Virus genome (UHGV): UHGV-1710001
Source of the DNA: a virus
Strand: one strand, 5' to 3'
DNA: 45,026 nt
In this document: positions 6,573-40,349 of the stretch, piece after piece
Layout: each line of letters opens with the position of its first letter
Position numbering within the stretch: position 1 is the first letter of the stretch
Notes under the pieces: generated by a model
Told to the model about the DNA's origin: nothing
Database searches by the model: none
What the model saw: only the letters and a program-made list of their open reading frames with translations
Made by a program: the position numbers and the translations under genes

Positions 6573-6589
6573 ATTGCTCTAATGTATTG
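6573..6589 (+). promoter_or_regulatory. C1 repressor operator upstream of lpa
   Basis: ATTGCTCTAATGTATTG, 14/17 match to the recalled C1 operator ATTGCTCTAATAAATTT. Confidence 0.6.
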
Positions 6590-7197: not shown

Positions 7198-8391
7198 GTG
7201 ACCTGGGACGATCACAAGAAGAATTTTGCTCGCCTGGCGCGAGATGGTGGTTACACCATCGCACAGTATGCCGCCGAGTTTAATCTTAACCCTAATACTG
7301 CACGTCGTTATCTCCGTGCCTTCAAAGAAGACACCAGGACAGCGGACAGCCGCAAGCCAAATAAGCCAGTCAGGAAGCCACTAAAAAGCATGATCATTGA
7401 TCACTCTAATGATCAACATGCAGGTGATCACATTGCGGCTGAAATAGCGGAAAAACAAAGGGTTAATGCCGTTGTCAGTGCCGCAGTCGAGAACGCTAAG
7501 CGCCAAAATAAGCGCATAAATGATCGTTCTGATGATCATGACGTGATCATCCGCGCCCACCGTACCTTACGTGATCGCCTGGAACGCGACACCCTGGATG
7601 ATGATGGTGAACGCTTTGAATTCGAAGCTGGCGATTACCTGATAGATAACGTTGAAGCGCGGAAGGCCGCGCGCGCTATGTTGCGTCGGTCCGGGGCCGA
7701 TGTTCTGGAAACCACTCTTCTGGAAAAGTCTCTTTCTCATCTCCTTATGCTGGAGAACGCCAGGGATACGTGTATTCGCCTGGTGCAGGAAATGCGCGAT
7801 CAGCAAAAAGACGATGATGAAGGTACTCCGCCTGAATACCGTATCGCGAGCATGCTAAACAGCTGTTCCGCGCAGATAAGCAGCCTGATCAACACCATTT
7901 ACAGCATCCGGAATAACTATCGAAAAGAAAGCCGGGAGGCGGAAAAGCACGCTTTGTCTATGGGGCAAGCTGGCATTGTTAAGCTGGCATACGAACGAAA
8001 GCGTGAAAATAACTGGTCAGTGCTGGAAGCAGCTGAATTCATCGAGGCGCATGGCGGGAAAGTGCCGCCCCTGATGCTGGAGCAAATCAAAGCCGATCTG
8101 CGTGCTCCTAAGACCAATACCGATGATGAGGAAAGGCAAACTGCCGTCGGTGGCCCTTCTCTTGAAGATCTGGACAAAGTTGCGCGAGAACGGGCCGCCA
8201 ACCGCCGCGCCGATGCCGCATTGTGGATTGAGCAACGTAGGGAAGAAATCGCCGATATCGTTGATACAGGCGGTTATGGAGATGTTGATACTGAAGGTGT
8301 ATCAAACGACCCATGGCTGGAACAAGACCTGGACGAAGACGAGGAGGAAGACGAAGAAGTTACCCGCAAGCTATACGGGGATGATGATTAA
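7198..8391 (+). CDS. pacA: terminase small subunit PacA
   Basis: 397-aa ORF with GTG start, N-terminal HTH-like segment, acidic C-terminus; contains the pac site; size matches recalled P1 PacA. Confidence 0.8.
7391..7549. promoter_or_regulatory. pac packaging site with hexanucleotide repeats containing Dam GATC sites
   Basis: Four TGATCA hexamers at about 7391, 7398, 7410 and 7425 and three TGATC(A/G) at about 7521, 7533 and 7544, separated by about 90 bp; matches the 4+3 architecture of P1 pac. Confidence 0.75.
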
Positions 8392-9875
8392 TGGCCAGAA
8401 GTTGCGTAACGGATCCACGTTGGCGCGAGCTGGTGGCGCTATATCGTTATGACTGGATTGCGGCCGCTGATGTTTTGTTCGGCAAAACACCTACCTGGCA
8501 GCAGGATCTGATTATTGAGTCTGTGCAGGAACAGGGTAGCAAGACATCTGTTTCGTCTGGTCACGGTACCGGGAAATCAGACATGACTTCTATCATGATC
8601 ATGTTGTTCATAATCATGTATCCCGGTGCCCGCGCCATTATCGTTGCGAACAAAATTCAGCAGGTAATGACCGGTATATTCAAGTACATCAAGATAAACT
8701 GGGCTACTGCCACCAGCCGTTTTCCATGGCTTGCTGATTATTTTGTTCTGACAGAAACCGCTTTCTATGAGGTTACTGGTAAAGGTGTATGGACTGTAGT
8801 ACCGAAGGGCTTTCGTCTGGGAAGTGAAGAAGCTCTCGCCGGTGAACACGCAGATCATCTTCTGTATATTATCGATGAAGCCTCCGGTGTCAGTGATAGA
8901 GCTTTCGGTATCATCACCGGTGCTCTTACCGGACAGGATAACCGCATCTTATTACTGTCACAGCCTACACGCCCAAGCGGCTATTTCTACGATACTCACC
9001 ATAAACTGGCCAAGCGTCCTGGTAACCCAGATGGCGTTTATACGGCGATCACGCTTAACAGTGAGGAATCACCGCTGGTAACGCCAGAATTTATCAAAAT
9101 GAAGCTGGCGGAGTACGGCGGGCGTGATAACCCTATGTACATGATTAAGGTACGCGGGCTATTCCCTAAATCACAGGACGGCTTCCTTCTTGGACGTGAT
9201 GAGGTTGAACGTGCGACGCGGCGGAAAGTCAAGATTGCCAAAGGATGGGGCTGGCTTGCATGTGTGGACGTTGCTGGTGGTACAGGACGGGATAAGTCCG
9301 TTATCAATATCATGATGGTGTCCGGCCAGCGAAATAAACGCCGTGTAATCAACTATCGAATGCTGGAATACACAGACGTTACAGAAACGCAGCTTGCCGC
9401 CAAAATTTTCGCAGAATGTAATCCTGAGCGATTCCCCAATATCACCATAGCGATAGACGGCGATGGCCTGGGTAAAGCAACGGCGGATCTGATGTACGAG
9501 TATTATGGTATTACCGTACAGCGTATACGCTGGGGTAAAAAGATGCATAGCCGTGAAGATAAGAGCCTGTACTTTGATAAACGTGCTTATGCCAATGTTC
9601 AAGCCGCAGAGGCCGTAAAATCTGGTCGTATGAGACTGGATAAGGGTAATGAAACTATTGAGGAAGCGTCGAAAATCCCTGTAGGGATTAACTCCGCAGG
9701 TCAATGGAAGGTGATGAGTAAGGAGGATATGAAGAAAAAACTCAACCTGCACTCACCAGACCATTGGGATACATATTGTTTCGCTATGCTGGCGGATTAT
9801 GTTCCCCAGGATGAAGTGCTTAGCGTCGAAGACGAAGCGCAGGTTGATGAAGCTCTGGCATGGCTTAATGAATGA
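8391..9875 (+). CDS. pacB: terminase large subunit PacB
   Basis: 494-aa ORF overlapping the pacA stop; Walker A SGHGTGKS, Walker [11 protein letters not shown]. Confidence 0.8.
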
Positions 9876-9878
9876 ATA

Positions 9879-9895
9879 TTTGCTCTAATAAATTG
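9879..9895 (+). promoter_or_regulatory. C1 operator-like site just after pacB
   Basis: TTTGCTCTAATAAATTG, 15/17 match to the C1 operator; positioned to control the downstream structured-RNA/ant unit. Confidence 0.5.
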
Positions 9896-12546: not shown

Positions 12547-12563
12547 AGATTTATTAGTGCATT
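12547..12563 (-). promoter_or_regulatory. C1 operator-like site between coi and c1
   Basis: Reverse complement AATGCACTAATAAATCT, about 14/17 match to the operator consensus. Confidence 0.35.
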
Positions 12564-13010: not shown

Positions 13011-13027
13011 TAATTTATTAGAGCAAT
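13011..13027 (-). promoter_or_regulatory. C1 operator (Op99-type) upstream of coi/c1
   Basis: Reverse complement ATTGCTCTAATAAATTA, 16/17 match. Confidence 0.65.
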
Positions 13028-13093: not shown

Positions 13094-13110
13094 ATTGCTC
13101 TAATAATTAT
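13094..13110 (+). promoter_or_regulatory. C1 operator (Op99-type) upstream of coi/c1
   Basis: ATTGCTCTAATAATTAT, 14-15/17 match; 36 bp from the transposon left inverted repeat. Confidence 0.6.
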
Positions 13111-20792: not shown

Positions 20793-20878
20793 CGCAGTTT
20801 TTGTCAACTACGAAGACGTTGCCATTACTTCACTCCTTGACATCATTGGCGGCCATTAGGCCGCCTTTTTTTTGCCAT

Positions 20879-21439
20879 ATGAAAACAATCGAACAAAAAC
20901 TTGAACAGCGCCGCGAGTGGCAGAAGGCAGCCAGAGAACGAGCGATCGCTCGGCAACGGAAAAAGTTGGCTGACCCCGCCTGGCGAGAATCGCAATATCA
21001 GAAAATGCGGGATTCTATCGACCGACGTATCGCTAAACAGAAAGAGCGCCCACCAGCCAGCAAAACGCGGAAAAGTGCGGTAAAAATAAAATCTCGTGGC
21101 TTGAAGGGGCGAACACCGACGGCGGAGGAACGGACCATCGCCAATGCTCTTGGCACTCTCCCCTGCATTGCCTGCTACATGCATGGAGTAATATCTGAAG
21201 AGGTGTCTCTGCACCATATCTCCGGTCGTACCGCGCCGGGTTGTCACAAAAAGCAATTGCCCCTTTGTAGATGGCACCACCAGCATGCTGCACCGGCTGA
21301 AGTAAGAGCAAAATACCCCTGGCTGGTCCCTGTTCATGCCGATGGTGTGGTTGGAGGCAAGAAAGAATTCACCTTGCTGAACAAGTCAGAGATGGAGTTA
21401 CTGGCTGACGCCTATGAGATGGCAAACATCATGCACTAA
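20879..21439 (+). CDS. ref: Ref, HNH-type recombination enhancement endonuclease
   Basis: 186-aa product from ATG 20879; the 20801 start in the ORF track lies upstream of the operator; HNH-like core SLHHISGRTAPGCHKKQLPLCRWHH; size matches P1 Ref. Confidence 0.75.
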   Translation: MKTIEQKLEQRREWQKAARERAIARQRKKLADPAWRESQYQKMRDSIDRRIAKQKERPPASKTRKSAVKIKSRGLKGRTPTAEERTIANALGTLPCIACYMHGVISEEVSLHHISGRTAPGCHKKQLPLCRWHHQHAAPAEVRAKYPWLVPVHADGVVGGKKEFTLLNKSEMELLADAYEMANIMH

Positions 21440-23879: not shown

Positions 23880-26800
23880 TTATGCGTATTGTTGGATGAC
23901 GGCCAGAACGTCCGCCACGTTGTGTTTTGTCTCGATAATCCACCAGTTACCTGGGAAGTCGCTGTTCTTCGCCTTCGCTGGCAACCAGCGAGCGCCGAAT
24001 TTCGCCTTGATTGCGTCTTTCGCACGGAAAAGAACCCCTTTCATGCCGGAGGCTTCCTGAAGTCCAAATACCTCGCCAGCGGCGAATTTTGGTGCGTACA
24101 TCATCTTCAGGTCGGCGGTGGATACGCGATAATTCAGACCAAGAGACTGAGCTATGCTGGTGGCATCACCCTGTATTGATGATAACTCTTCTTGTTTCTC
24201 GTTTCTGGCGGCAATTTCTTCCTCCGTGATGTTGCCAAGGGCCAGGTTTATCCGATCAGCGTCTGCCTGTTTCTCTTCATCGGTGCGCCCGGCAAGTACC
24301 GTGTTAATTCTGTGCAATATCTCCACATGATTCTTGCGCATGCTGAGCAATTCCGGCGTAACCTCGTTAAGGTCCACCAGCCCAAGGATGGCAAGGTCGG
24401 TAAACATTGATACCAGGTTGTAGGTCATGCGATAGCTGAGTTGCCCATAGGCTGATGGCAACTGCACCGCATCCATTTGATAGGCATCCATAAATTTAGA
24501 GCCGTCGTTTACGACATCCGCAATTGCCGGTGTGATTTTCCCTGTGGTGGCGGCCTCCCTGATTGCTGTTACCCACGATTGAGTCAGCGCGGCGACTGCA
24601 TGATTCAGATTGGCTTTCCGTTCTGCTGCAATGCGCGCGCTTGCTGCGTCCATTGTCTGCTTGATCTCGTCTTTATTGCTGTAAATGCCAATGGTGCCAA
24701 ACTGTGCTGTGGTGATCTCATAATCTGACGCCCGGAACTCATTGGTACCGAAAATGGCATTGGTGACTTCAAGTTCAGAATCCCCGTTACGAGTAGCCCC
24801 CTGGCTTGTTTTTTCCGGCATTCTGGCGATCGCATCCGCTATTTTCTCCTGAATTGCTTCAGGGGATAGCGTATCTCCGTATGACGCGATTACATCGCCA
24901 TAATTGGAGCCAAACAGTTCAACCAGGAATGTTTCTGCCGAACGGATCTGGCGGTTATTCCCTTCCGACATCATACCAAGCACCCATTTTGCAATTGACG
25001 ACTTCAGCGCGCCGTCACGGCGATCCGGGTAAACCGCATGCTTCAGTGGGTCCGTATAGGTACCAACAAAATCAATGCTATAGCCTGACTCTGTAGTCTG
25101 AACGCCGTATGAGTCAGTGATTTTGATCATGCCGCGCTGCTGGAAACGGTAGAAATCGTCACAGGAAACGATGTCGTTAATCCCGGCGATGGAGACGCCA
25201 CCACTGATTTTCTGCATAACAGCATCTTCATCGGGAGTTACATCAACCTGTTTATCCAGCGTCTTCACATCCCAGTTACCCGATTTGGTGCCTTTGAAGG
25301 TAAAGATGATCTCCACGTCTGCGCGCTGGCTGTCGAAGTCCAGCGACTTAATGCGAACGATATCACCGGCACAATCATAGTATTGGCCTACACGCCATGA
25401 GCGATCGCCGATAACAAGGAACTCATTCGCATGGTTAACCAGATCAGGATCAACATCCAGAATGCCTTTATTTATTGCATCCTCCACCAGCGGGCGCAGG
25501 CGTTTGATATCCGTCGCGGCCTTCTGAGTACGGTTCAATAATTTCTCATAGCGGGAGATGGCCTGAGAGATATTAGCCTTGCGCTGAATGGCGCTTTTCA
25601 ACGACGCGCGATACTGTGCTAACAACATACGGTCTGTGTGATGGACGCTACCCCAGCGGGCTTTCCAGTCTGCGTTATCAGCTGCTTTGGCCATTACCGC
25701 CTGTTTGAATTTGGCGACGTCGGCGGTGGTCTTTTCAAGTTCCGCTTTGCTTCGCTCCAATTCAGCGGTAAGTACCTCCACATCCTCACCAGCTGCGTGC
25801 TGCGCCTTGATGTAGTTCTGAAGGTCGATAGTAGCCTGTTCTTTCTGGCGAGCGCGTTTCGCAGCTTTCGCCTTATCCATTTGAACCTGCATCATTGCCA
25901 GACGTTCGCCGTCATCCTTCGCGGTATACATCTGCATTTCGATCATATCGTTGGCGTCGGCGTTCTCCATTTCTGACTTATCTGAACGGAGGATATCGGA
26001 GATCCAGCCTGCTTTACGCTTCAGCGTCTTCAGTCGGTATTCATCGAAAGACCCCTTGCCGCAGTAGTAGTGAACGCGAATGCTTGCACGGTTGGAGCCA
26101 ACTCGGGCACCGCGACCGTTTCGTTGCGCAATACTGGCTGGAGTCCATGGCAACGTCAGATGATGGATGTCAGTCGTTCCTCGATGCAGGTTGATACCCA
26201 CCTCTGCCTTTTTGTTGCAGATGATGATCGGAGTCCGGCCCTCCTGGAAGTCGGCTGCAATCTTTTCCAGACCGCCCAACGACATTTCATTTTGCTGCGC
26301 GATATAGGCGTCATACAGAGCCATTTGCTCGTTGTATTTCGCTATCTGTGCATCTGTTGGTTCATCCGGTAACTCTTTCGGCGGTTTAACCGCTTTCAGT
26401 TTCTTACCGGTTTTACCTGCCTCGGCAACCGTCTGAGCATTCAGTATCCCCACCTTTGAAGGTTCAAGGTTAAGAGCATTGCAGATAATGCGCTTGAGCT
26501 TCTGGTGCTGCGTTTTTTCATCGGTGAAGATGATTTGCTTACCTTCCGGGAAAAACTCCTTCAGCGTGGCAATCAGCTTCGCGTATTTGGGCGTAACGGG
26601 GTGAGTTACGGTCTGTTCGTCAATGCCAAACCTGGCCAGGCGCTTATTCACTTCCTGCTCGAACGCTTCCGGAACCTGCAACTGAATAAACTCGCCCTTA
26701 TCTATCAGGGAGTATTGCGATTGCTGCGTGATTGAATCATCACTGTCGTCGTCTTCACTGGTGGCTTGTTTAGGCAAACTGTCCGCCAGCTGCTGCACCG

Positions 26801-29800
26801 CATCGGCGTACTCCGGCAGGAAACGATAGGTGATCCGGCGATAGTACAGGTCCATGTCAGTACATACGCGGTCCATATCCCTGATTATTGAGAAGATCGG
26901 ACGGGCTTTCTCGTGCTCAATCACGCCGTCTTCATTGACCGAGGTCGTTACGCCATTGTTGGCTTTGGCCGCCGCTTCCGCCTGCTGGCGCAATTCTTCA
27001 TACGCCGCCAGTTGTTCTTCAGTAAGTGGTGCATCCTGCTGGTGTTCGTCCAGCTCCGGGATCTCCACGGTATCCTTAACGTCTTCCGCCGTTTTAAGCG
27101 TTACCCAGCGATGGAATATACCGCGCAGCGCATCAAGGTTTTCAAAGCCCACCAGCGCCATTTTTTCTTCAACTTCACCGCTAATTTTCTGTACCGTTTC
27201 CAGCCTGGTCTTGCCGAAGAATTTAACGAAGTCATCAGGACCGTAGATCCCCATGTTCTGCCAGTATTCCTTCGGCAGAACATGAGAAAGCATGTTGTAT
27301 GCATCGATCGGGGTGTTAACGACTGGCGTTGCAGTCAGGAGAACCGGCCCGCGCCCACCATTCTTTTTCATCAGGTACGCGTTTTTAATTGCCATATCTC
27401 GCGCCGATTGCGCCACCGCGCTGGTGGGCAGATAGGCCAGTTGTGACGCTTCGCGACCATTTTTATAGCTATTGCGGTAGTTGTGACCTTCGTCAGCGAT
27501 CACACTATCGAAGCCCATATCCTCAAAGTACGGATACTTCTCTGCTTTTACGGTGCCGGTATCTGAATACTCCGACAATACCCGGCGACGCGCGGCCTCT
27601 TTGCGGTGGGAGTCGGAGTCCATTGCGCTGGCTACGCGTCCGGCGGCAACGAAGTCATAAAGCATATCCTGTGCATGCTCATCTACGGTGTCATCACGTA
27701 GCGGAATGCGGGCGTATTGTTCTTTGGTAAACACGACTGCACGGTAATTTGAGTGCGGGATCGCGTTCATCCGCGCCGTGATAGTGGCTTCATCTGCCAG
27801 CTTAAGAGCATCGCGCATAACTGGAGTGCCATCAGTACCAAGAACAGGTTTACCGTTCTCATCGAGCACCTGCACCTGGCGAATCTGATCGCCATCCATC
27901 AGCACATCAAGACCGACGAACAGGTAGTTACTGAATGCCTCTTCACTCAGGAATTCTTTTGCTTCGTAATACCAGTTTTCCAGCACTGATTTAGGCACTA
28001 CATACGCAGTACGGGTGGAGCGACCGTTCTCATAGTTGAACGCCTCAAGCGCCAGCGCGGTCGTGGTTTTACCCAGCCCGGTGCCGAAGCCCAGGATGCC
28101 GCGCCCATCTTCGGACAGTCGGCGCACCTCGCTATTCTGGTAATCAAATGGCTGGCGCTTACCGCTTAATCCCTTCAACCCAAGCGGATCGCCAGAGTGT
28201 TCATACGGGATATTGCTATTGAACACATCGTTGTATTTGGCAACCAGCTCATCGTAGCGATCGTGCGTCTTGATCCACTTATTGAACTGGTCCTCAAGCA
28301 GTGCCATCTGCTCGCGGTAGCCGTTCGCCGTCGCGCTATCTTTGCCACCGATACGCGCACCATTGAGATACTTTTCCAGCTGTGCCGGGAACCCGGTCGC
28401 GTTTTCACCTGATTTACGGTCCCACTCGTAGCGAATCTCACCTGTTTCTTTATCCTTGCGCTGGACGACACCGTATCGGTGCCCGACGAACAGACCATCA
28501 CCACCGTGATAGGTGTCAGAAACCATTTCGTCGCCTTCCAGCTGCACTGACTGCACATAGCGCAGATCCGGATAGCCGTTTTCCTGCAAAAATTCCAGAA
28601 TGACGGAACGGTCGAACCAACGGCTATTGAGCTTAAACCGGATATTCTCTGCTGGCGTCTTGATGCGCTTCTCTTCGATAGCTGCCATCTGATTAAGGAC
28701 GTTGTTCTTTACTGGACCGTCGGGGAGTGTGGCGAGGAATTCCTGTTTTGGAGCCACTATCTCGTTAATGTCGCCGCTGGTGGCGCGGGCGAACGGAACA
28801 ATCCCGCCATACGGTGAAACCGCAATACCAGGGGTGCTGGCCAATAAATTAAGCAACTCTTCATCACTGGCTGGCAGTTCGCCGGTAAACGCAAGGCGGA
28901 AATCATCGAGCTGGATTGGATCGCGGGTGAGATCGCTATAGAGATAACGCAGGGTGTCCTGATAGCTGGTGGAGTCATAACTTGCGCTGGAATCATGCGT
29001 AACCAGCTTCCCTGTCAGCTCGTCAGAAATAGTGCCATCCAGCTTAATTGCACCACGGAAAGCAAACCAGGCGCGCGCACCGCTCCCCGACAATTTCGCT
29101 ATCGGACCGCGACCGGGGTTACCAAAACGGTCAATCTCTGCCTGCAAACGGGATACCAGAGAAAGGCGCTGCTGTTCGATTTGTTCAGCACTATGCCCGG
29201 CGGCCTTCATATCCTGATATTCAATTAACATCCGGCCAATCATCGCCCCGCGATACAAGCGTTCACGGTATTTTTCAGGCTGGCTGTTAATCCAGTCCAC
29301 CAGCTGCACCATATCGTCGCTGATTGATGTGGTGTACTTATCGCGGACATTTGCCATCTGGGTAAATGTCATACCGAGACGGCCTTCTGTTGTAGTCAGG
29401 TTACGCTGAAGAGCCTCCCAGCTATCCGCGCCATAACTGGCAGCATCGATCTTAAGTTCCTTCCCGGCATCAGCTTCAATCCAGCGACCACCAGCATATT
29501 TTTGCCATACGCCATTAATCAGGCGCATTTCCCCTTCACCAACAACGTCTGCGGTCGGTGACGGTTCAGCCATATCGAGCAAAGACCAGTCGATACGGCT
29601 TTCGAAACGATGAATCAGCTTCGCTTTAAGAGCCTGGTTATCAATCTGACCGTCGGCACGAACCTCAATACGCCCCTGGAAGCCCTTTTCCTGGGTGCCA
29701 TGAACAAACCGGCGGCCATCCTTTTCAAACCACTTGCCAGAAATAAACGTTGGCCAAAGCACATTTGCCGATTCAAGAGTGCTTTCATCCACCAAGGGGA

Positions 29801-30647
29801 TTTTCTCAGCCATCTCTGCCGGATGTTTGCGCATCAGCACCACATCTACGACCGTACTGGTCCCGTTTGCGTCAAAAGTACCGGTAGGCAAGCGGTGGGC
29901 ACCAAGAAATTCAGCTTTCCGTGATAGGCGCAGGCGTAACCGCTTCATGTTTGAACCTGAAACAATGGACGGCGGCACAATCACGCACATGAATCCGCCT
30001 GGCTTTATCTTGTCCAGCATGCGGAGCATGAAGTAAGAACCCATGTCCGTTTCTTCTGCGTAAGGCTTATCGATGTTGCGTGTGTTATCACGACCGCCGA
30101 ACGGAACGTTACCCACAACATGGTCGAATGAATCGTTAGGCGTGTTTATAGCCAGCTGTTCGAACGGGGAAATCTGTACGCTGTCTTCCGGGTGTAACAA
30201 CTGGTTTATACGACCGGAAACACTGCTGATCTCAGTCGCGGTCATCACCGTACCAACCGGTTTTGTCTCATTAAAAACGCCGGTTCCCGCCGATGGTTCC
30301 AGAGTGTTACCTACGTCCGCGCCGTAGAGCTTCATGATCTCCCAGACACCTTCAGCGATAGGCTTTGGTGTGTAATATTCGGAGACGGACCCGCCAATGC
30401 CGCCTTCACCAGTGTACCCGGCCAGGATCTGGCGCTGTTCATCTGTCAGTGTCGCGCCGTCCACCAGCGAATTAAGCAAATCTATCGCCTTCTGATTCGC
30501 CTCCCGGCGCAGTCGGTCATAGCTTTTGCCTTCCACCTTTTCCACGCCGTATTTAATCGGCGCTCGGTGAGATGTTATTGTCCTAATGTATTTCAATATT
30601 TCGCTGACACTTGAACAGCGAAACACACCCATAGATAGCTTGTTCAT
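23880..30647 (-). CDS. darB: DarB-like antirestriction protein: N6-adenine methyltransferase fused to SF2 helicase
   Basis: 2255-aa ORF; N-terminal methyltransferase motifs EPSAGTGVF and NVPFG; central helicase motif I GFGTGLGKTT, motif II VIADEGHNYRN, C-terminal motif VI QRNGRGARVG; size matches recalled P1 DarB. Confidence 0.8.
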   Translation of the reverse strand: MNKLSMGVFRCSSVSEILKYIRTITSHRAPIKYGVEKVEGKSYDRLRREANQKAIDLLNSLVDGATLTDEQRQILAGYTGEGGIGGSVSEYYTPKPIAEGVWEIMKLYGADVGNTLEPSAGTGVFNETKPVGTVMTATEISSVSGRINQLLHPEDSVQISPFEQLAINTPNDSFDHVVGNVPFGGRDNTRNIDKPYAEETDMGSYFMLRMLDKIKPGGFMCVIVPPSIVSGSNMKRLRLRLSRKAEFLGAHRLPTGTFDANGTSTVVDVVLMRKHPAEMAEKIPLVDESTLESANVLWPTFISGKWFEKDGRRFVHGTQEKGFQGRIEVRADGQIDNQALKAKLIHRFESRIDWSLLDMAEPSPTADVVGEGEMRLINGVWQKYAGGRWIEADAGKELKIDAASYGADSWEALQRNLTTTEGRLGMTFTQMANVRDKYTTSISDDMVQLVDWINSQPEKYRERLYRGAMIGRMLIEYQDMKAAGHSAEQIEQQRLSLVSRLQAEIDRFGNPGRGPIAKLSGSGARAWFAFRGAIKLDGTISDELTGKLVTHDSSASYDSTSYQDTLRYLYSDLTRDPIQLDDFRLAFTGELPASDEELLNLLASTPGIAVSPYGGIVPFARATSGDINEIVAPKQEFLATLPDGPVKNNVLNQMAAIEEKRIKTPAENIRFKLNSRWFDRSVILEFLQENGYPDLRYVQSVQLEGDEMVSDTYHGGDGLFVGHRYGVVQRKDKETGEIRYEWDRKSGENATGFPAQLEKYLNGARIGGKDSATANGYREQMALLEDQFNKWIKTHDRYDELVAKYNDVFNSNIPYEHSGDPLGLKGLSGKRQPFDYQNSEVRRLSEDGRGILGFGTGLGKTTTALALEAFNYENGRSTRTAYVVPKSVLENWYYEAKEFLSEEAFSNYLFVGLDVLMDGDQIRQVQVLDENGKPVLGTDGTPVMRDALKLADEATITARMNAIPHSNYRAVVFTKEQYARIPLRDDTVDEHAQDMLYDFVAAGRVASAMDSDSHRKEAARRRVLSEYSDTGTVKAEKYPYFEDMGFDSVIADEGHNYRNSYKNGREASQLAYLPTSAVAQSARDMAIKNAYLMKKNGGRGPVLLTATPVVNTPIDAYNMLSHVLPKEYWQNMGIYGPDDFVKFFGKTRLETVQKISGEVEEKMALVGFENLDALRGIFHRWVTLKTAEDVKDTVEIPELDEHQQDAPLTEEQLAAYEELRQQAEAAAKANNGVTTSVNEDGVIEHEKARPIFSIIRDMDRVCTDMDLYYRRITYRFLPEYADAVQQLADSLPKQATSEDDDSDDSITQQSQYSLIDKGEFIQLQVPEAFEQEVNKRLARFGIDEQTVTHPVTPKYAKLIATLKEFFPEGKQIIFTDEKTQHQKLKRIICNALNLEPSKVGILNAQTVAEAGKTGKKLKAVKPPKELPDEPTDAQIAKYNEQMALYDAYIAQQNEMSLGGLEKIAADFQEGRTPIIICNKKAEVGINLHRGTTDIHHLTLPWTPASIAQRNGRGARVGSNRASIRVHYYCGKGSFDEYRLKTLKRKAGWISDILRSDKSEMENADANDMIEMQMYTAKDDGERLAMMQVQMDKAKAAKRARQKEQATIDLQNYIKAQHAAGEDVEVLTAELERSKAELEKTTADVAKFKQAVMAKAADNADWKARWGSVHHTDRMLLAQYRASLKSAIQRKANISQAISRYEKLLNRTQKAATDIKRLRPLVEDAINKGILDVDPDLVNHANEFLVIGDRSWRVGQYYDCAGDIVRIKSLDFDSQRADVEIIFTFKGTKSGNWDVKTLDKQVDVTPDEDAVMQKISGGVSIAGINDIVSCDDFYRFQQRGMIKITDSYGVQTTESGYSIDFVGTYTDPLKHAVYPDRRDGALKSSIAKWVLGMMSEGNNRQIRSAETFLVELFGSNYGDVIASYGDTLSPEAIQEKIADAIARMPEKTSQGATRNGDSELEVTNAIFGTNEFRASDYEITTAQFGTIGIYSNKDEIKQTMDAASARIAAERKANLNHAVAALTQSWVTAIREAATTGKITPAIADVVNDGSKFMDAYQMDAVQLPSAYGQLSYRMTYNLVSMFTDLAILGLVDLNEVTPELLSMRKNHVEILHRINTVLAGRTDEEKQADADRINLALGNITEEEIAARNEKQEELSSIQGDATSIAQSLGLNYRVSTADLKMMYAPKFAAGEVFGLQEASGMKGVLFRAKDAIKAKFGARWLPAKAKNSDFPGNWWIIETKHNVADVLAVIQQYA

Positions 30648-34390: not shown

Positions 34391-34402
34391 AAATCACTTG
34401 TT
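34391..34402 (-). promoter_or_regulatory. late-promoter-like motif upstream of lyz
   Basis: Reverse complement AACAAGTGATTT, matching the motif seen upstream of prt and mat. Confidence 0.4.
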
Positions 34403-34426
34403 AGCCACGTTTCAAAGATATACATT

Positions 34427-34443
34427 ATTGCTCTAATTAATTT
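34427..34443 (+). promoter_or_regulatory. C1 operator upstream of ssb
   Basis: ATTGCTCTAATTAATTT, 16/17 match, 20 bp upstream of ssb. Confidence 0.7.
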
Positions 34444-34462
34444 ATTTTATTAGGTAAGAAAA

Positions 34463-34951
34463 GTGGCACAACGCGGTGTAAACAAAGTCATCCTGATTGG
34501 TACCCTGGGGCAAGACCCGGAGATCAGGTATATACCAAATGGCGGCGCAGTCGGAAGACTCAGCATCGCAACGAATGAATCATGGCGCGATAAGCAAACG
34601 GGCCAACAGAAAGAGCAAACAGAATGGCATAAAGTCGTTTTGTTCGGAAAACTTGCTGAAATTGCGAGTGAGTATTTACGAAAAGGTTCTCAGGTCTACA
34701 TCGAAGGGAAACTTAAAACCCGTAAGTGGACTGATGACGCCGGTGTAGAACGTTACACGACGGAAATTATCGTCAGCCAGGGCGGCACCATGCAAATGAT
34801 CGGCACTCGCCGTGACGATTCACAGTCCTCAAATGGCTGGGGGCAATCAAACCAACCTCAAAACCACCAGCAATACAGCGGTGGCGGCAAACCTCAGAGC
34901 AGCGCCAATAACGAACCTCCAATGGACTTTGACGACGATATTCCGTTTTAG
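34463..34951 (+). CDS. ssb: single-stranded DNA-binding protein
   Basis: 162-aa ORF with GTG start; OB-fold N-terminus [22 protein letters not shown], Gly/Gln-rich linker and C-terminal acidic tail DFDDDIPF. Confidence 0.9.
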
Positions 34952-34956
34952 AGTTT

Positions 34957-35139
34957 ATGAGTAAAAAACGACTGAAAGAAAAGCGGTGGTCAAGACGCCG
35001 ACAAAAGCACGAACTCGCAAAAAAACGCCAAAGTTGGCAATGGCACGCGCTTTTCACGAAAAGAACACCCCGAGATATTGCTTTCGCTGGTGGGAAAACA
35101 TTCCTGACCCACCTGAAGGCGCAATACATCAGTTTTTAA
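34957..35139 (+). CDS. small highly basic ORF (60 aa), uncertain
   Basis: MSKKRLKEKRWSRRRQKHELAKKRQSW...; immediately after ssb; no clear RBS. Confidence 0.2.
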   Translation: MSKKRLKEKRWSRRRQKHELAKKRQSWQWHALFTKRTPRDIAFAGGKTFLTHLKAQYISF

Positions 35140-35153
35140 GCAGAGAAAAGACT

Positions 35154-35942
35154 ATGACAGCACAAAATACTAAAACAATTCAATACCGCCTGCGTAATGG
35201 CCAGAGTGTCGAAGTGACCATCAATAATGATGGTGTACCTGGCGAAAAGGTTTCTATCTCTGATCTGGCTATCGAAAAAACCATCATGTGCCACCTTGGC
35301 TTTACTGAAGAAGTGAGCAAAAAGCATGGTGTAGCAATCTGGAGCGCAATGGATACTGGTATGCGCAAATTCATTACTGCTCGTACCCCAGGGATGACCA
35401 TGATGGACCTCATGCAGATTGCGCCGCTGTTTGAATGTGAGCCTTTAGATGTATTCAGCAATCCAGCTATCTGCCAGCAGTTATATGGTGAGATGAAACT
35501 CGCGGTTACCCCCATTGTGCTGCATGAAGGATCGCTTGCTGGCGTGTGGAAAGTAGAGCGTATTTCAAGCTACATGCCTTTCCATGTCAACGGCGTAATC
35601 ACTGGTGAAAATCAACCTGTTTCTGTTATAAAGTCAGACCTCAAGCGCGCAATTCTTGAAGCAAGTTGTCGAGTTGTCGGCCTGGGCAAACAGTCTTATG
35701 TTTCCTTCCCGGCTGGCCCTGAAGGCCCGGCAGAAATTCTGATTATGGATGCCGATCTGCTATGGCAAATACAGTTTCTGATTGGCAAAAGCATCATCCG
35801 CGCTGAAGAACTCGATCAGTACATTACCTGCACGATGACGGATGAAGTCAAAAGTGTGGCTATAGCCAATGCCCGGAACCTATGTCGTGCTGCATTAACA
35901 GAACTGCAAGAAAACACCACGGAAGAGGTGGAAAGTGATTAA
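35154..35942 (+). CDS. hypothetical protein upstream of the PacB-like paralog
   Basis: 262-aa product from ATG 35154 (the ORF track's longer frame starts at 34986 with GTG); stop overlaps the start of the next gene. Confidence 0.4.
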   Translation: MTAQNTKTIQYRLRNGQSVEVTINNDGVPGEKVSISDLAIEKTIMCHLGFTEEVSKKHGVAIWSAMDTGMRKFITARTPGMTMMDLMQIAPLFECEPLDVFSNPAICQQLYGEMKLAVTPIVLHEGSLAGVWKVERISSYMPFHVNGVITGENQPVSVIKSDLKRAILEASCRVVGLGKQSYVSFPAGPEGPAEILIMDADLLWQIQFLIGKSIIRAEELDQYITCTMTDEVKSVAIANARNLCRAALTELQENTTEEVESD

Positions 35943-37029
35943 TCGTATACAGAATGAATCTGCCTGGTTAGCACTGATAGAACGGTATAAAGACAATTGG
36001 GAACTGGCAGCAAAAGAGTTGCTTGATATTGAGTTAACACCTCATCAAGCAAAAATTATTAACGCGATAAAGAACACCGGAGCCAAAATCACTGCCACCA
36101 CACCACATGGTATTGGGGAAACCTCTATTGTGGCAGTGATTAGCATCCTGCAAACAATACTGTATTCGTGTTCCCGTACAGTGGTTGTTTCTCCTGCGAT
36201 TAACGATTGTCGAAAAACAATAATTGACTATATGTTCCGTTATTGGGAGCGAGTTACCCAAAAACACCCTTTTCTTGGCAATTATTTCAGAATACACCCT
36301 GACAAAGGGTTGGTGCATATCAGTGAAACATGGGGATGCGTCTATATAACCTATTGTCTGAATAACGAAGAGTCTCTGGCTGGTTTTACTGGACCGCACG
36401 ATCTTTTCATCGTTATTAACTCGGCGGAAATCAGCGATCGCGCTCATGCAGTGATAACTGGCAATTTAACCAATTATGACTCGCGCCTGCTGTTGCTGTC
36501 GAAACCATCGGAACGCGAGAAAGGGTACTTTTATGATTCGCATCACCGGTTGGCCCATAGTAAAAACAATCCTGCTGGTTTTTTCACGGCGATAACTCTA
36601 AACACAGAGGATTCACCTCTCGTTTCTGAAGCATATCTTGAATTCAAAGCCAAAGAGTTTGGTGGGCGCAATAGCGATGAATATCGCCGATTGATCTTGG
36701 GGAAATTCCCCGGGATTCGGGAGTTGATGGAAAAGTCATCTGTTCCCCGTAATATGCACTTCACAATGACTGACGGTAGTAAATGGGTAGTGCCTACGAT
36801 CGTGATCGCCAAACACCATGCGAAACATCACGCTCAAAAACACAACTCCAGCACATTAGACTGGCTGAAGGCCTATACAATACCGTTATTCTCGGCAAAC
36901 CATAACGCTATAACTGAATGGGCTAAACAAATCCCCTGGCAGGATGTGGCTGAAGAGGCATTTGTCGAAAAACCACCAAGAGATATGCACGAGCACTGTT
37001 GGCTGACATCAGAAAAGAGTTTCTCGTGA
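35935..37029 (+). CDS. PacB N-terminal (terminase ATPase-domain) paralog with degenerate Walker motifs
   Basis: 364-aa ORF with GTG start after GGAAGAGGTGGAAA; aligns by eye to PacB over about 250 aa (SRLLLLSKPSEREKGYFYDSHHRLAHSKNNPAGFFTAITLNTEDSPLVSEAYLEF against [54 protein letters not shown]); Walker A lysine replaced (HGIGETS against HGTGKSD) and Walker B DE replaced (IVINSAE against IIDEASG); no nuclease domain. Confidence 0.6.
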   Translation: MINRIQNESAWLALIERYKDNWELAAKELLDIELTPHQAKIINAIKNTGAKITATTPHGIGETSIVAVISILQTILYSCSRTVVVSPAINDCRKTIIDYMFRYWERVTQKHPFLGNYFRIHPDKGLVHISETWGCVYITYCLNNEESLAGFTGPHDLFIVINSAEISDRAHAVITGNLTNYDSRLLLLSKPSEREKGYFYDSHHRLAHSKNNPAGFFTAITLNTEDSPLVSEAYLEFKAKEFGGRNSDEYRRLILGKFPGIRELMEKSSVPRNMHFTMTDGSKWVVPTIVIAKHHAKHHAQKHNSSTLDWLKAYTIPLFSANHNAITEWAKQIPWQDVAEEAFVEKPPRDMHEHCWLTSEKSFS

Positions 37030-37034
37030 GGTAA

Positions 37035-37058
37035 AAATCCCGCCAATTGGCGGGATTT
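37035..37058. terminator. bidirectional intrinsic terminator
   Basis: AAATCCCGCC-AATT-GGCGGGATTT hairpin between convergent genes, with an A-run on the plus strand that gives a U-run for the minus-strand dar operon transcript. Confidence 0.6.
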
Positions 37059-37060
37059 CT

Positions 37061-37372
37061 TCAATATACGATCTGGTCTACATGATCACCAAAATCATCG
37101 TCGTCGTCGTCCTCATCGCCACCATCTACTGCTGGCCAATCAACAAACCAGCCAGCGTAAAGATGCAGCGTTCGGAGAACATCACTTGCGGGAGCATCAA
37201 GGGTGTTAACGAATCCCATATAGCTATTGGGATTTGCCCCAGCTATGGCTTCAGCGATCATGTCCTCGGTAATGTCACCGGAGATAATGCTTAAACGCCC
37301 GGAAACTTCTTCATTATCATCAAATTCGATAATGGCATCTCCGCCTAATGGCGCTGCGATTTTAATCTGCAT
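37061..37372 (-). CDS. small acidic protein, last gene of the dar operon
   Basis: 103-aa ORF with poly-Asp tail DGGDEDDDDDDFGD; overlaps the ddrB stop region. Confidence 0.45.
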   Translation of the reverse strand: MQIKIAAPLGGDAIIEFDDNEEVSGRLSIISGDITEDMIAEAIAGANPNSYMGFVNTLDAPASDVLRTLHLYAGWFVDWPAVDGGDEDDDDDDFGDHVDQIVY

Positions 37373-40349
37373 TATTTAGCTCCTTTGCCACACCTAATAA
37401 CAGTTCCAGCAATCCGTCACCATTCATCAGTGATGCGGCAGCGGCCTCTTTGTCATGATACAACTGAAGAGCCATAGAGAATACTTCCGTTGCTGACGTT
37501 TTGGAAATAGTCGGTGATTTCTGCCGAATTTTCCCGGTGTTACTTACTGAGGCTGGCGGGTATACCTTCGCCATATAAATATTACTCAATCGAGATCTGA
37601 AGCACCATTCAGGCTTGCCACGCCCACCGATATTAACGAAAGATGGCTTATCCCCTTCAACATTGGCCTTCAGGAATGACCGGGCTTTCTCTAACAAACC
37701 AGGGTTACTGTACTCAAGATGATGACCCAGCTCGTGCCACAGTGCACTTGCATTTTCATCGTTCAAATTGACAGCAACAACACCATTAAGATTTGCATAT
37801 GCCCTTCCCTGGTGGTGAACCACCTTTGATAAGGTCGAAATTTTACCGCCGGTCAGGCGATAAATATCAGCAAGTTCCTTGCGCAGGTCTATCCCACCAT
37901 TCTGTCCAGCGCGGGCTTCTTCCACTTCTTCCGTGATAAAAGAGTCGGCCCACTCAAGAGCTTTTTCTTCAGATACGGATGAGTTTGCGATCGCACTGTT
38001 CATGGCAGATAACACTTTCTCGTGGACCGAACCCATACTTCGCTGATTCATTTGCCAGCGTGTCTGCGGGTTATATGAGAATCGCTTAAGTAGTTGGTCA
38101 AGCTGCTCAAGTTCTTCTTCACTGACATACCTTTTAGCCTCACCAATAATGCCAGGGAGAATATTGCCGTTAGGATTAAACGCTCGCGAAAGGAAGAGTT
38201 TCAGCGCCCCCATGCCCTCCGATGCTTCAATATCACCAATAACCCGGTTAACAATGGCCGCACTCTTCGGATTAGCATCCGCCAACGCTCTGGCTACAAT
38301 TTGCAGGGACGATACGACCTCACGCTGCATATCCGTCCTGATCTCATCAATAAACTCTGGCGTTATGCCGTGCTCTTTAAGGATATCCCTGCCTTCCGCC
38401 GTTACCCCATCGATATCACCGACATGTTTATTAACCCGACTTTGCAATGCCTTAAATGCCTTCAGAATTCCACGGGCATCATCCGCTTTACTAACGGCCT
38501 TCCTGAATGCTGGCAAGAAGTCTGAGTTAACCTCATTTTGTTGATCGGCCCACTGAATGGAGGCTTCTTTCATCTCGTCCAGAGTCAGATCACCCAACGC
38601 AGTATGGTCTGTGAATATGAGCGACAACCTCTGAACCATTTCTGCCAATGGTGATGCCGAATGCGCCGCGCTAAGGAATGCTTTCACCCTGGTTGGGCGA
38701 ATGGAAAACCAGTCAATAGCTGGTGGCATATCTCCGTTTTTTATCGCCTGCGCTATCTCGTCAAAGCCATCGCGCCCAAGGGAGGATGCGTGATTTAACA
38801 AGCCGCGAAGTAACGAATTGCTGATACCGAATAATCGGCACCATTTTTTCACGTCGGCAACAGGCATTCGAACAAAATGCGCAAGCACTTGTACAAGCTG
38901 TTCATCCTGGGGATCTGTACGGGAAAGCAGCCTGATCAGATGAATAATGTCTTTGATGCCGGATGCCCGATGTAATAGCAAACTGGTATATGGAGCAACA
39001 CCATTGTAACTACCGCCGGAAACGGACTCGAAAAGACCGCCGGATATCCCTTGCATGCCTTCGTTTTCCAGTTCCTGAGACACCTGGCGAAGGATATCCT
39101 GTAACGACACATCACCACCGCCAAACATATCCCCCAGCGCCTGGCCCTGGTGCTGTAACTCATCATTGATACGTTGAGCCATCAACTTAAAGGCGGTGGC
39201 CATACGCTTCGCGCTACGGTTATTCGCGACGATGAACAACGCGAGTGCTTTCACTTCCGGGGCCGTTTCGCTGAACATATCCCCCTGAGCAATAACATCG
39301 GTAATATGCTGGCCTGACTCCTTCGATTGCCTTACCAGGTCTACCGCATCTTTCAATGCCGCCAGCGCCTTTTTATCGAGGCTATCCGCTGTCTCAATGC
39401 CATCAACAATAGTTGTCACAGCCTGCTTGTGCGCTTCTCCTGATAAAGCCTGCATCTGGACAAAATCATTGGCTGCCGCATTAAGCGCCGTCAGAACATT
39501 ACGCATATCCGGATCAGGTTCTTCTGCAACCATCCTTACCAGGCGCGCATCCTTATATGCCTTGGCAAAGATCGCGTTTTGTATACGGTCAACAAGTTGC
39601 CGCGTTGGTCGCCCATCTTCCGTTACAAGGCCAGCCGCCTGTGTGGCACCAACTTGCGTCATAAATCCGCGAATAAACGCGTCATTACTGCGGCTAAGCA
39701 GATCTCCGCTTTCTGACGGGTTAAAAAGCGCCATCATCGCCGGTGTTATGCTGTCGGCATCAACAAAAGCCTTTTCACTGGCTGCCATTTCCTGAAGATC
39801 AGAAATATTTGAGTCCTTGGCAAACTGAACGCGGTCAACCTTGGTTAACCGGCGGCGCACCAGTACCGGAGCCGTCATTGATTCAACCTTTTCAGGTCGT
39901 ATGCCGAATTCGGTCGCATGATCAATCAGGTACTCACGATACCGATCCGCATTGCCGTCCTGATAGGCTTTGATGATCCCCATGGTCCGTCCATTACCTG
40001 ACTCAACGGCATTGTCCTCACCAATTATCGGCGCACCATGGCTGGATAAACCGGAATCAGTAAGCTGAGCAGGCCGCAAATCTTTGGATATCTGGTTAAC
40101 CTGAAGAAGGCTGGATGCGCGGGTCCGGTCGCGCGGCTGAAGTTCCTGGGGATAGTCAGGATTAATTTTCCCATCCAGAGTATTGGATACCAAAAGAGCT
40201 GAGGCATCGACGATATCAAACGCTGTTTTTACCTCGTCTCCCTTCGCTGTCACCACATACGAAACCCGCCCATAACCGGGCAGGTTCTTTAGCAGCTCGA
40301 TCAGCGTTTCTATGCTGGTGGCCATTACCACCTGATCGCTTAAGCTCAT
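37362..40349 (-). CDS. ddrB: DdrB-like large virion-associated protein with HExxH motif
   Basis: 995-aa ORF downstream of darA/ddrA; contains ALWHELGHHLEY (HExxH zinc-metallopeptidase-like signature); assignment by operon position and size. Confidence 0.5.
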   Translation of the reverse strand: MSLSDQVVMATSIETLIELLKNLPGYGRVSYVVTAKGDEVKTAFDIVDASALLVSNTLDGKINPDYPQELQPRDRTRASSLLQVNQISKDLRPAQLTDSGLSSHGAPIIGEDNAVESGNGRTMGIIKAYQDGNADRYREYLIDHATEFGIRPEKVESMTAPVLVRRRLTKVDRVQFAKDSNISDLQEMAASEKAFVDADSITPAMMALFNPSESGDLLSRSNDAFIRGFMTQVGATQAAGLVTEDGRPTRQLVDRIQNAIFAKAYKDARLVRMVAEEPDPDMRNVLTALNAAANDFVQMQALSGEAHKQAVTTIVDGIETADSLDKKALAALKDAVDLVRQSKESGQHITDVIAQGDMFSETAPEVKALALFIVANNRSAKRMATAFKLMAQRINDELQHQGQALGDMFGGGDVSLQDILRQVSQELENEGMQGISGGLFESVSGGSYNGVAPYTSLLLHRASGIKDIIHLIRLLSRTDPQDEQLVQVLAHFVRMPVADVKKWCRLFGISNSLLRGLLNHASSLGRDGFDEIAQAIKNGDMPPAIDWFSIRPTRVKAFLSAAHSASPLAEMVQRLSLIFTDHTALGDLTLDEMKEASIQWADQQNEVNSDFLPAFRKAVSKADDARGILKAFKALQSRVNKHVGDIDGVTAEGRDILKEHGITPEFIDEIRTDMQREVVSSLQIVARALADANPKSAAIVNRVIGDIEASEGMGALKLFLSRAFNPNGNILPGIIGEAKRYVSEEELEQLDQLLKRFSYNPQTRWQMNQRSMGSVHEKVLSAMNSAIANSSVSEEKALEWADSFITEEVEEARAGQNGGIDLRKELADIYRLTGGKISTLSKVVHHQGRAYANLNGVVAVNLNDENASALWHELGHHLEYSNPGLLEKARSFLKANVEGDKPSFVNIGGRGKPEWCFRSRLSNIYMAKVYPPASVSNTGKIRQKSPTISKTSATEVFSMALQLYHDKEAAAASLMNGDGLLELLLGVAKELNNAD

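Follow-up and report, generated by a model that had tools for sequence, protein, structure and literature searches.

The window analyzed here is the whole 45,026-nucleotide stretch of the virus genome UHGV-1710001, whose gene order identifies it as a P1-like phage-plasmid. In this study, we found that one of its genes, psT (pseudo-terminase), encodes an intact, conserved, and non-catalytic paralog of the ATPase domain of the PacB-type large terminase (TerL), and that psT is an optional cassette in the slot between isaA and hxr of P1-like phage-plasmids. The psT family was previously undescribed in the literature found, and its nearest analogue is vs.8 of phage T4, the only one that turned up when we looked for reports on dead terminase paralogs or terminase decoys. 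In the databases, psT is labeled as hypothetical (PGAP) or is lumped with PacB in phrog_5902, a family of unknown function. The psT ortholog in MH422554.1 (16006-17100; locus L002, 3037-4131) was deposited as "terminase large subunit", which is misleading for a protein without the catalytic motifs and the nuclease domain.

psT was compared with PacB of the window, the resident active large terminase. In BLASTP, 266 aa were aligned at 35% identity (E 3e-54), and the alignment included the sequence blocks quoted in an earlier note on this DNA, which had described the 364-aa product as a homolog of the PacB ATPase domain. The alignment to PacB, a check that the note had proposed, confirmed the similarity. 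The model of psT predicted by AlphaFold2 (AF2) had a predicted local distance difference test score (pLDDT) of 89 and a predicted template modeling score (pTM) of 0.85. When this model was searched with Foldseek, the best matches among PDB and viral (BFVD) structures were the ATPase domains of large terminases, namely Sf6 gp2, P74-26, D6E, and T4 gp17. Sequence-profile searches of the PDB with psT, IsaA, and the C-terminal domain of psT gave no match, and neither psT nor IsaA was assigned to a Pfam, NCBIfam, or PADLOC family.

We then compared the catalytic motifs of the two proteins. Walker A reads SGHGTGKS in PacB and PHGIGETS in psT. Walker B reads LYIIDEAS in PacB and FIVINSAE in psT, in which Asp is replaced by Ile and the catalytic Glu by Asn. 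These alignments confirmed the earlier observation that the Walker A lysine and the Walker B acidic pair are lost. The coupling (C) motif, S-Q-P-T-R in the PacB type, is SKPSE in psT. The similarity to PacB stops near residue 270, and the last ~95 aa differ. No profile similarity was found between this tail and the PacB-type nuclease domain (hhalign probability 0.3%), so the absence of a nuclease domain from psT, also proposed in the earlier note, was upheld. With Lys gone from Walker A, Asp and the catalytic Glu gone from Walker B, and both QPT(R) and the nuclease domain missing, ATP hydrolysis, DNA translocation, and DNA cleavage by psT are all almost certainly impossible, which leaves binding as its mode of action.

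The wider family was examined by an exhaustive HMMER search of 1.84 billion cluster representatives, which gave 749 matches, 140 of which were aligned. Outside the pseudo-terminase set, nearly every match covering the motifs had the Walker A lysine (G/T-K-S/T/G/D) and, in Walker B, an acidic pair that was DE or, in a few cases, EE. Two fragment-like sequences (P0063 and P0131) did not keep the lysine, and four further fragments stopped short of the motif. Both motifs were degenerate in twelve clusters including the window psT, and these proteins were only 230-270 aa long or had other C-terminal domains. Eleven clusters at 50% identity, consisting of psT, P0002, P0004, P0006, P0007, P0009, P0010, P0013, P0014, P0043, and P0062, were monophyletic and sister to the PacB-type terminases in 95 of 100 neighbor-joining bootstraps, in a tree made by a distance method only, for which long-branch effects are possible. 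Motif loss in cluster P0041 appears to have been independent. A word-index homolog search with the alignment as query returned mostly ordinary terminases and contributed little. Separately, an intein-like insertion within the Walker A P-loop (GHGC...HNTGK[ST]) was seen in the PacB-type large terminases P0030, P0038, P0051, P0070, P0111, and P0118.

Residues were scored as lost in this pseudo clade when they were conserved in at least 85% of 24 active PacB-type terminases and missing from the clade. The lost residues were the S, G, T, and K of Walker A, the D and E of Walker B, S165, and Q-P-T-R; the columns of the coupling motif were variable across the clade. The Walker A Lys column was K in all active PacB-type terminases compared and E/R/H/R/T/M/I/C/T/R/R across the pseudo clade. 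The residues kept in the clade were the Q upstream of the P-loop, the P-loop glycines, EExLAG, GYFYDSHH, SP, and YGGR..Y..G.FP. Among the members whose surroundings could be examined, the clade was found in P1-related or similar phage contexts. Distant pseudo-terminases are closely linked to different upstream genes. In L011 (pair at 7336-8792), a P1-like contig with a P7-type C1 repressor, the upstream gene encodes a Ref-like RecA-dependent nuclease and overlaps by 4 nt. It is a radical SAM gene in L005 (5027-6795) and ssb in L013 (1-1197). The window itself has a 212-aa ORF (open reading frame) at 20801-21439 with 51% identity to the Ref-like protein of L011 (PF16786, RecA_dep_nuc), and this ORF is probably the ref gene of the window.

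We also examined the C-terminal domain that psT carries in place of the nuclease domain. The possibility that the last ~95 aa are a nuclease-domain remnant or were derived from PacA was rejected (hhalign probability <1%). Homologs of this domain (~85 aa) were found as standalone proteins, fused at the N-terminus, or at the C-terminus of other phage proteins. The standalone form (P0125; Cronobacter phage JK004, L094, 3501-3797) is, in JK004, separated by a single small gene from a DnaB-like helicase gene upstream of it. In protein P0025 the domain is located N-terminal to a pseudo-ATPase. In Xanthomonas phage Tenjo (L093, 1894-3309) it forms the C-terminus of a 471-aa protein inside a recombinase-exonuclease-SSB module. 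These results indicate that the C-terminal domain, as judged from its homologs, is a distinct and mobile domain.

In a set of 5,426 complete E. coli genomes, 100 had full-length psT of the window type; 101 copies were counted, 99 of them on plasmids. The ORF was intact in all 100 genome matches and in about 162 PLSDB records. A second phage-plasmid lineage (PLSDB rep_cluster_1704), represented by L003, L004, L010, and the IMG/VR loci L036-L046, L083, and L088, carries dut, a DUF2829 gene, an IsaA-like gene (46% identity), and a psT-like gene (48-53%). In this lineage, the isaA/psT start-stop overlap is the same, and the block is located ~5 kb downstream of the lineage's own pacAB. The psT orthologs of the second lineage have the same length and the same domain order. 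Their Walker A remnants are GIGRPQ and GIGHKS, and V/M-D is found where D-E is expected in Walker B. Because the Walker remnants differ between the lineages, the motifs drift while the rest of psT is kept.

The selection acting on psT was estimated from the ratio of nonsynonymous to synonymous substitution rates (dN/dS). The value for psT was 0.09 between the close pair L003 and L010 and 0.39 between the more distant pair L003 and L004, and that for isaA was ~0.1. Among window-type psT alleles it was 0.3-0.8, from only 6-15 substitutions, which are too few to judge. These results demonstrated that psT is under purifying selection where the substitutions suffice to tell. Between two backbones for which both were compared, psT was 50% identical and the PacB ATPase domain 63%, so psT diverges faster.

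The earlier note had suggested that reference P1 may carry its IS1 within or next to this gene pair, which would make the window an uninterrupted ancestral version. The 3-kb region 34400-37400 of the window matched three deposited P1-like phages over its full length at 96.6-98.8% identity, and only 63% of it was in common with reference P1. When the window was compared with NC_005856, DNA homology ended exactly at the isaA stop codon and restarted exactly at the hxr stop codon. Between these two stops, reference P1 has 94 nt, IS1, 134 nt, isaB, and 112 nt, and psT is wholly absent. IsaB had no similarity to psT or PacB. The idea that IsaB is the diverged C-terminal half of psT was rejected, as no similarity was found and tblastn of psT against the isaA-hxr interval of P1 gave chance matches only. 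Since homology breaks at both stop codons and isaB is unrelated, the P1 arrangement represents a cassette replacement and not a psT gene split by IS1. The suggested position of IS1 was nearly right, as IS1 lies 94 nt downstream of isaA, but P1 holds no interrupted copy of psT, and its slot was refilled with IS1 and isaB. The part of the suggestion that concerns ancestry can be kept in a weaker form. As the IsaA and psT pair recurs in the second lineage at 46-53% identity, the pair is old and the P1 arrangement is plausibly derived.

The isaA-IS1-isaB interval corresponds to the published hypervariable region RD-2 (PMC6906374, PMC9603915). Among the PLSDB records, 331 have the isaA 3' end, of which about 120 have psT and only 12 have the junction of P1; most alignments break at the isaA stop. 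The figure of about 120 refers to psT at no less than 80% identity, out of 784 records with any PacB-like match. Across PLSDB, the isaA stop codon behaves as a cassette boundary. In SJ46, the gene order is ssb, a 281-aa gene, isaA, and hxr, and psT is missing.

The gene upstream of psT is isaA. Its product was 95% identical over 320 aa to IsaA of P1 (P1_gp017, "IS1-associated"), of which it is the ortholog, and matched phrog_2326 (E 1e-148). The isaA frame is also open from GTG 34986 (318 aa), and phrog_2326 matches residues 60-318 of this long ORF, so that the conserved family starts at the ATG of the 262-aa form. psT starts at a GTG after the Shine-Dalgarno-like GAGGTGG, and the two genes overlap by 8 nt (GTGATTAA). 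The tight coupling of psT to an upstream 262-aa gene, as described earlier, was thus confirmed, and the upstream gene proved to be the known isaA of P1. IsaA is probably co-translated with psT in the E. coli elements. IsaA is followed by IS1 and the unrelated IsaB in reference P1, whereas isaA overlaps psT in the window and in the second lineage. We rejected IsaA as a paralog of the small terminase PacA, which would make the pair a duplicated pacAB, because BLASTP showed no similarity and the hhalign probability was 0.4%. IsaA-like genes were also found without an adjoining psT. Because of this, and because the genes upstream of the pseudo-terminases vary, IsaA and psT are not obligate partners. 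A previous CRISPR interference screen of P1 found both isaA and isaB to be non-essential (PMC10695390). Between the window and L002 (MH422554), the synonymous divergence (dS) was 0.23 for isaA and only 0.03 for the adjoining psT, which indicates a recombination breakpoint near the isaA/psT junction.

A tiny Arg/Lys-rich ORF had also been reported ahead of the pair. This 60-aa ORF exists in the window; however, its start motif is missing and its alignment has indels in reference P1, MH422554, L009, and L027, and ~100 nt covering most of its region are missing from the alignment of L030. Since neither the start motif nor the frame region is conserved, the ORF is unlikely to be a gene.

We next considered when psT is expressed. 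The P1 annotation places Ossb, P1ssb, and P2ssb at the position homologous to the C1 operator upstream of ssb (Table 1). When up to 3 mismatches were allowed, the C1-operator consensus matched at 6 places in the window, where 0.15 would be expected at random, namely at 6573-6589, 9879-9895, 12547-12563, 13011-13027, 13094-13110, and 34427-34443. One of these lies just after pacB and another upstream of the ORF preceding pacA. On the + strand within ssb-isaA-psT, no promoter-like or terminator-like site was found. The GC-rich hairpin between the convergent psT and hxr genes is likely a bidirectional terminator that closes the operon. Given the C1 operator at the head of the unit, the absence of internal + strand sites, and the hairpin at its end, we infer that psT, the last gene of the unit, shares a transcript with ssb, that this transcript should be switched on soon after derepression and ahead of the late packaging genes, and that it should be silent in the lysogen.

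The neighborhood of the slot was also examined. Beyond hxr, the window has ddrB, darA, and hdf, and the adjoining hxr-ddrB-ddrA-darA-hdf genes have been listed as antirestriction genes (PMC10695390). DUF2829 (PF11195) is named "Tad2-like" in Pfam, a Thoeris anti-defence 2-like domain. In the second lineage, isaA is immediately preceded by a Tad2-like gene (L003, 2521-3222). In some elements of the window type such a gene separates ssb from isaA (L018, 4422-5219; L020, 1951-2796; L023, 4422-5219; L032, 4512-5213), and the window is without one. When psT, IsaA, Hxr, and the tiny ORF were searched against the 5,027 PADLOC models (PADLOC-DB v2), no family was matched at E <=0.1.

Table 1. Positions of psT, its motifs and domains, and the surrounding features in the window.
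Feature	Position	Strand	Basis or remark
psT, pseudo-terminase, 364 aa	35935-37029	+	BLASTP to own PacB, AF2, Foldseek, phrog_5902 (E 3e-187)
psT ATPase-like domain, residues 1-265	35935-36729	+	Aligned to PacB residues 11-274; structure matches to TerL ATPase domains
Degenerate Walker A, PHGIGETS, Lys position = Glu	36103-36126	+	Alignments
Degenerate Walker B and catalytic Glu, LFIVINSAE, D->I, E->N	36403-36429	+	Alignments
psT C-terminal domain, residues ~270-350, two strands and three helices, in place of nuclease domain	36742-36984	+	AF2 pLDDT ~80-87; phrog_17928 positions 407-501
isaA, 262 aa from ATG	35154-35942	+	95% identical to P1 IsaA; stop overlaps psT start by 8 nt
Arg/Lys-rich 60-aa ORF in ssb-isaA spacer	34957-35139	+	Probably not a gene
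C1 operator, Ossb/Op21 type	34427-34443	+	1 mismatch to consensus; overlaps ssb promoters
ssb, opening gene of transcription unit	34463-34951	+	Ssb annotation in P1 relatives
GC-rich hairpin between convergent psT and hxr	37035-37058		Fold -21.1 kcal/mol, z -4.3; inverted self-match in blastn
hxr, right-hand edge of variable slot	37061-37372	-	P1 homology restarts at 37063; Hxr annotation
pacA and pacB span	7198-9875		
pacB, resident active large terminase, comparison paralog for psT	8391-9875	+	SGHGTGKS and IIDEAS intact; phrog_2 terminase large subunit
darB	23880-30647	-	Followed by prt, pro, lyz

The large terminase is one of the best-conserved proteins of phages and a major target for pattern-recognition immunity in bacteria. 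psT may be an early-made mimic of the terminase ATPase domain that acts by binding. Based on its accessory and fast-diverging behavior, its early timing, and its anti-defence neighbors, we ranked first a role in phage-host or phage-phage conflict, through counter-defence or interference with rival packaging, rather than in core morphogenesis. This role is possible, and we propose it tentatively. psT resembles counter-defence decoys, sponges, and anti-defence clusters (Tad2, Dar) in its apparent early expression, its patchy spread, its location in a cassette hot spot, and its Tad2-like and antirestriction-operon neighbors, whereas it has no homology to described anti-defence proteins. The most likely use would be counter-defence against the host sensors of the terminase ATPase domain, Avs1-3 and Upx. 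In previous work (PMC13601566), the ATPase domain of the terminase was sufficient to activate EcAvs2 and Upx, and Avs2 and Avs3 were found to touch both the active site of the terminase and the ATP bound to it. The same work found T4 vs.8, a standalone paralog of this domain with intact Walker motifs, to be toxic in combination with EcAvs2. psT could occupy or titrate such sensors without offering Avs2 and Avs3 the ATP-loaded active site they contact. A second use of the same class would be interference with the packaging machinery of a rival phage. The more specific proposal, that the proteins of the psT clade are early mimics which neutralize or evade Avs1-3 and Upx, and that the loss of the ATP residues is an adaptation to engage or escape these sensors, seems unlikely.

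Several points weigh against a role of psT in conflict. Binding is what activates Avs and Upx proteins, so a mimic might act as a trigger instead of a blocker, which appears to be the case for T4 vs.8. Avs2 and Avs3 may also fail to bind psT at all when it carries no ATP. Of the anti-Avs proteins known, one is a DNA ligase and another is DprA/Smf-like, and they are not terminase mimics (10.1101/2025.06.06.658234). The same neighborhoods also hold genes for DNA metabolism, including ssb, dut, and genes for a Ref-like nuclease and a DnaB-like helicase, so guilt by association is weak. The ssb-isaA-psT operon was deduced from consensus scans and the P1 annotation. Start codons that overlap the preceding stop occur frequently in phage operons and are no proof of a functional pair.

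The other explanations place psT in packaging, in DNA metabolism, in prophage defence, or in no function. The earlier note had put forward, as plausible roles, a regulator or decoy of packaging, a device for redirecting packaging, and a sensor of foreign terminase in abortive infection. psT could bind PacA, PacB, or the portal via its retained surfaces and form inactive complexes that slow or restrict pac cleavage and packaging, either of the element's own pacase or of a co-resident or superinfecting P1-type rival. The nearest relatives of psT are the PacB-type terminases, the sister group of the pseudo clade, and the non-catalytic blocks are well kept between psT and PacB, including the N-terminal region DPRW..Y..NW..Q in addition to EExLAG, GYFYDSHH, SP, and YGGR..Y..G.FP. 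psT resides together with a PacB-type terminase in all 3 elements that could be checked (the window, the L003-type plasmids, and the L006/L085 contig), and expression before the late genes would fit a brake on premature cleavage. However, psT is optional, as reference P1, P7, and SJ46 package normally without it, and it is located in an accessory slot away from the morphogenetic genes. What is encoded upstream also differs among the pseudo-terminases, being IsaA, a Ref-like nuclease, a radical SAM protein, or SSB, and nothing among these resembles a small terminase. Co-evolution with the resident PacB was also looked for and not seen: the window psT was 34.6% identical to the resident PacB and 35.8-36.5% to foreign PacBs, and the other two lineages were similar. 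Since psT is no closer to resident than to foreign PacBs, a specific partnership with the resident terminase is not supported. On balance, a packaging modulator is rather doubtful. Roughly the same standing is given to psT as an adaptor in DNA metabolism, in which it would be a non-catalytic scaffold or DNA-binding subunit working with SSB, nucleases, and helicase, with the C-terminal domain as the docking part. psT and its relatives follow ssb in the window and L013, follow the Ref-like nuclease gene in L011, or lie near RdgC and methylase genes, and the C-terminal domain is found near the helicase gene of JK004 and in the recombination module of Tenjo. However, this adjacency may merely reflect that all of these are early genes, and there is no known recombination system with a dead terminase ATPase domain. 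In addition, the IsaA model was poor (pLDDT 59), its fold class also matches double-stranded RNA-binding domains and ribosomal protein S5, and the wider IsaA family has no conserved catalytic acidic, Lys, or His pattern.

In the third explanation, IsaA and psT form an abortive infection or exclusion module encoded by the prophage, with psT as the part that detects or captures foreign terminases or small terminases. Variable regions of P1-like plasmids are reported to include defence cargo (PMC6906374, PMC9603915), this slot is a hot spot of cassette exchange, and a dead paralog could serve as bait. However, none of the 5,027 PADLOC models was matched, and no recognizable effector domain was found in IsaA or psT by the family searches. 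With a C1 operator over the promoters and no internal promoter found, the genes should be off in lysogens. The early operon under C1 control and the lack of a PADLOC match argue against a sensor expressed in lysogens, and we regard this explanation as very unlikely. The last explanation is that psT is a drifting, functionless leftover of a pacB duplication. Both Walker motifs and the nuclease domain are gone, and the near-identical window-type alleles have the dN/dS values of 0.3-0.8 given above, from few substitutions. This simple decay is contradicted by the conservation data, namely the intact ORFs in the E. coli genomes and plasmids, the preserved length and domain order of orthologs at 48-53% identity, and the dN/dS of 0.09-0.39 between diverged alleles. 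The clade is also old and monophyletic, consists of many 50%-identity clusters, and has gained a conserved new C-terminal domain. Decay is thus highly improbable.

psT can be placed beside two known kinds of terminase protein. It shares with PacB and PacB-type TerLs a homologous ATPase-domain fold at 35-45% identity, the N-terminal helical region, and the conserved blocks. It differs from them in that the catalytic residues and the RNaseH-like nuclease domain are missing, in that no PacA-like gene is located upstream, and in its position in an accessory operon that is apparently early and controlled by C1. T4 vs.8 is likewise a second, nuclease-less copy of a terminase ATPase domain encoded by a phage. 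By its published description (PMC13601566), vs.8 is of the T4 gp17 type, retains both Walker motifs, and shows toxicity in combination with EcAvs2. In contrast, psT has lost these motifs, clusters with the PacB-type terminases, and has an extra C-terminal domain.

These results define an overlooked family, in which a dead, nuclease-less copy of the terminase ATPase domain is kept by phages under selection. They also correct the picture given by reference P1, in which isaA-IS1-isaB is a cassette replacement of the older isaA-psT pair. If psT is a decoy for terminase sensors or a packaging brake, it would represent a new way to regulate or protect the phage packaging motor. If it is a mimic directed against Avs1-3 and Upx, it would establish a new class of anti-defence proteins, one descended from the sensed antigen itself. 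A role of this kind would explain part of the recurrent variable region of the medically relevant P1-like phage-plasmids.

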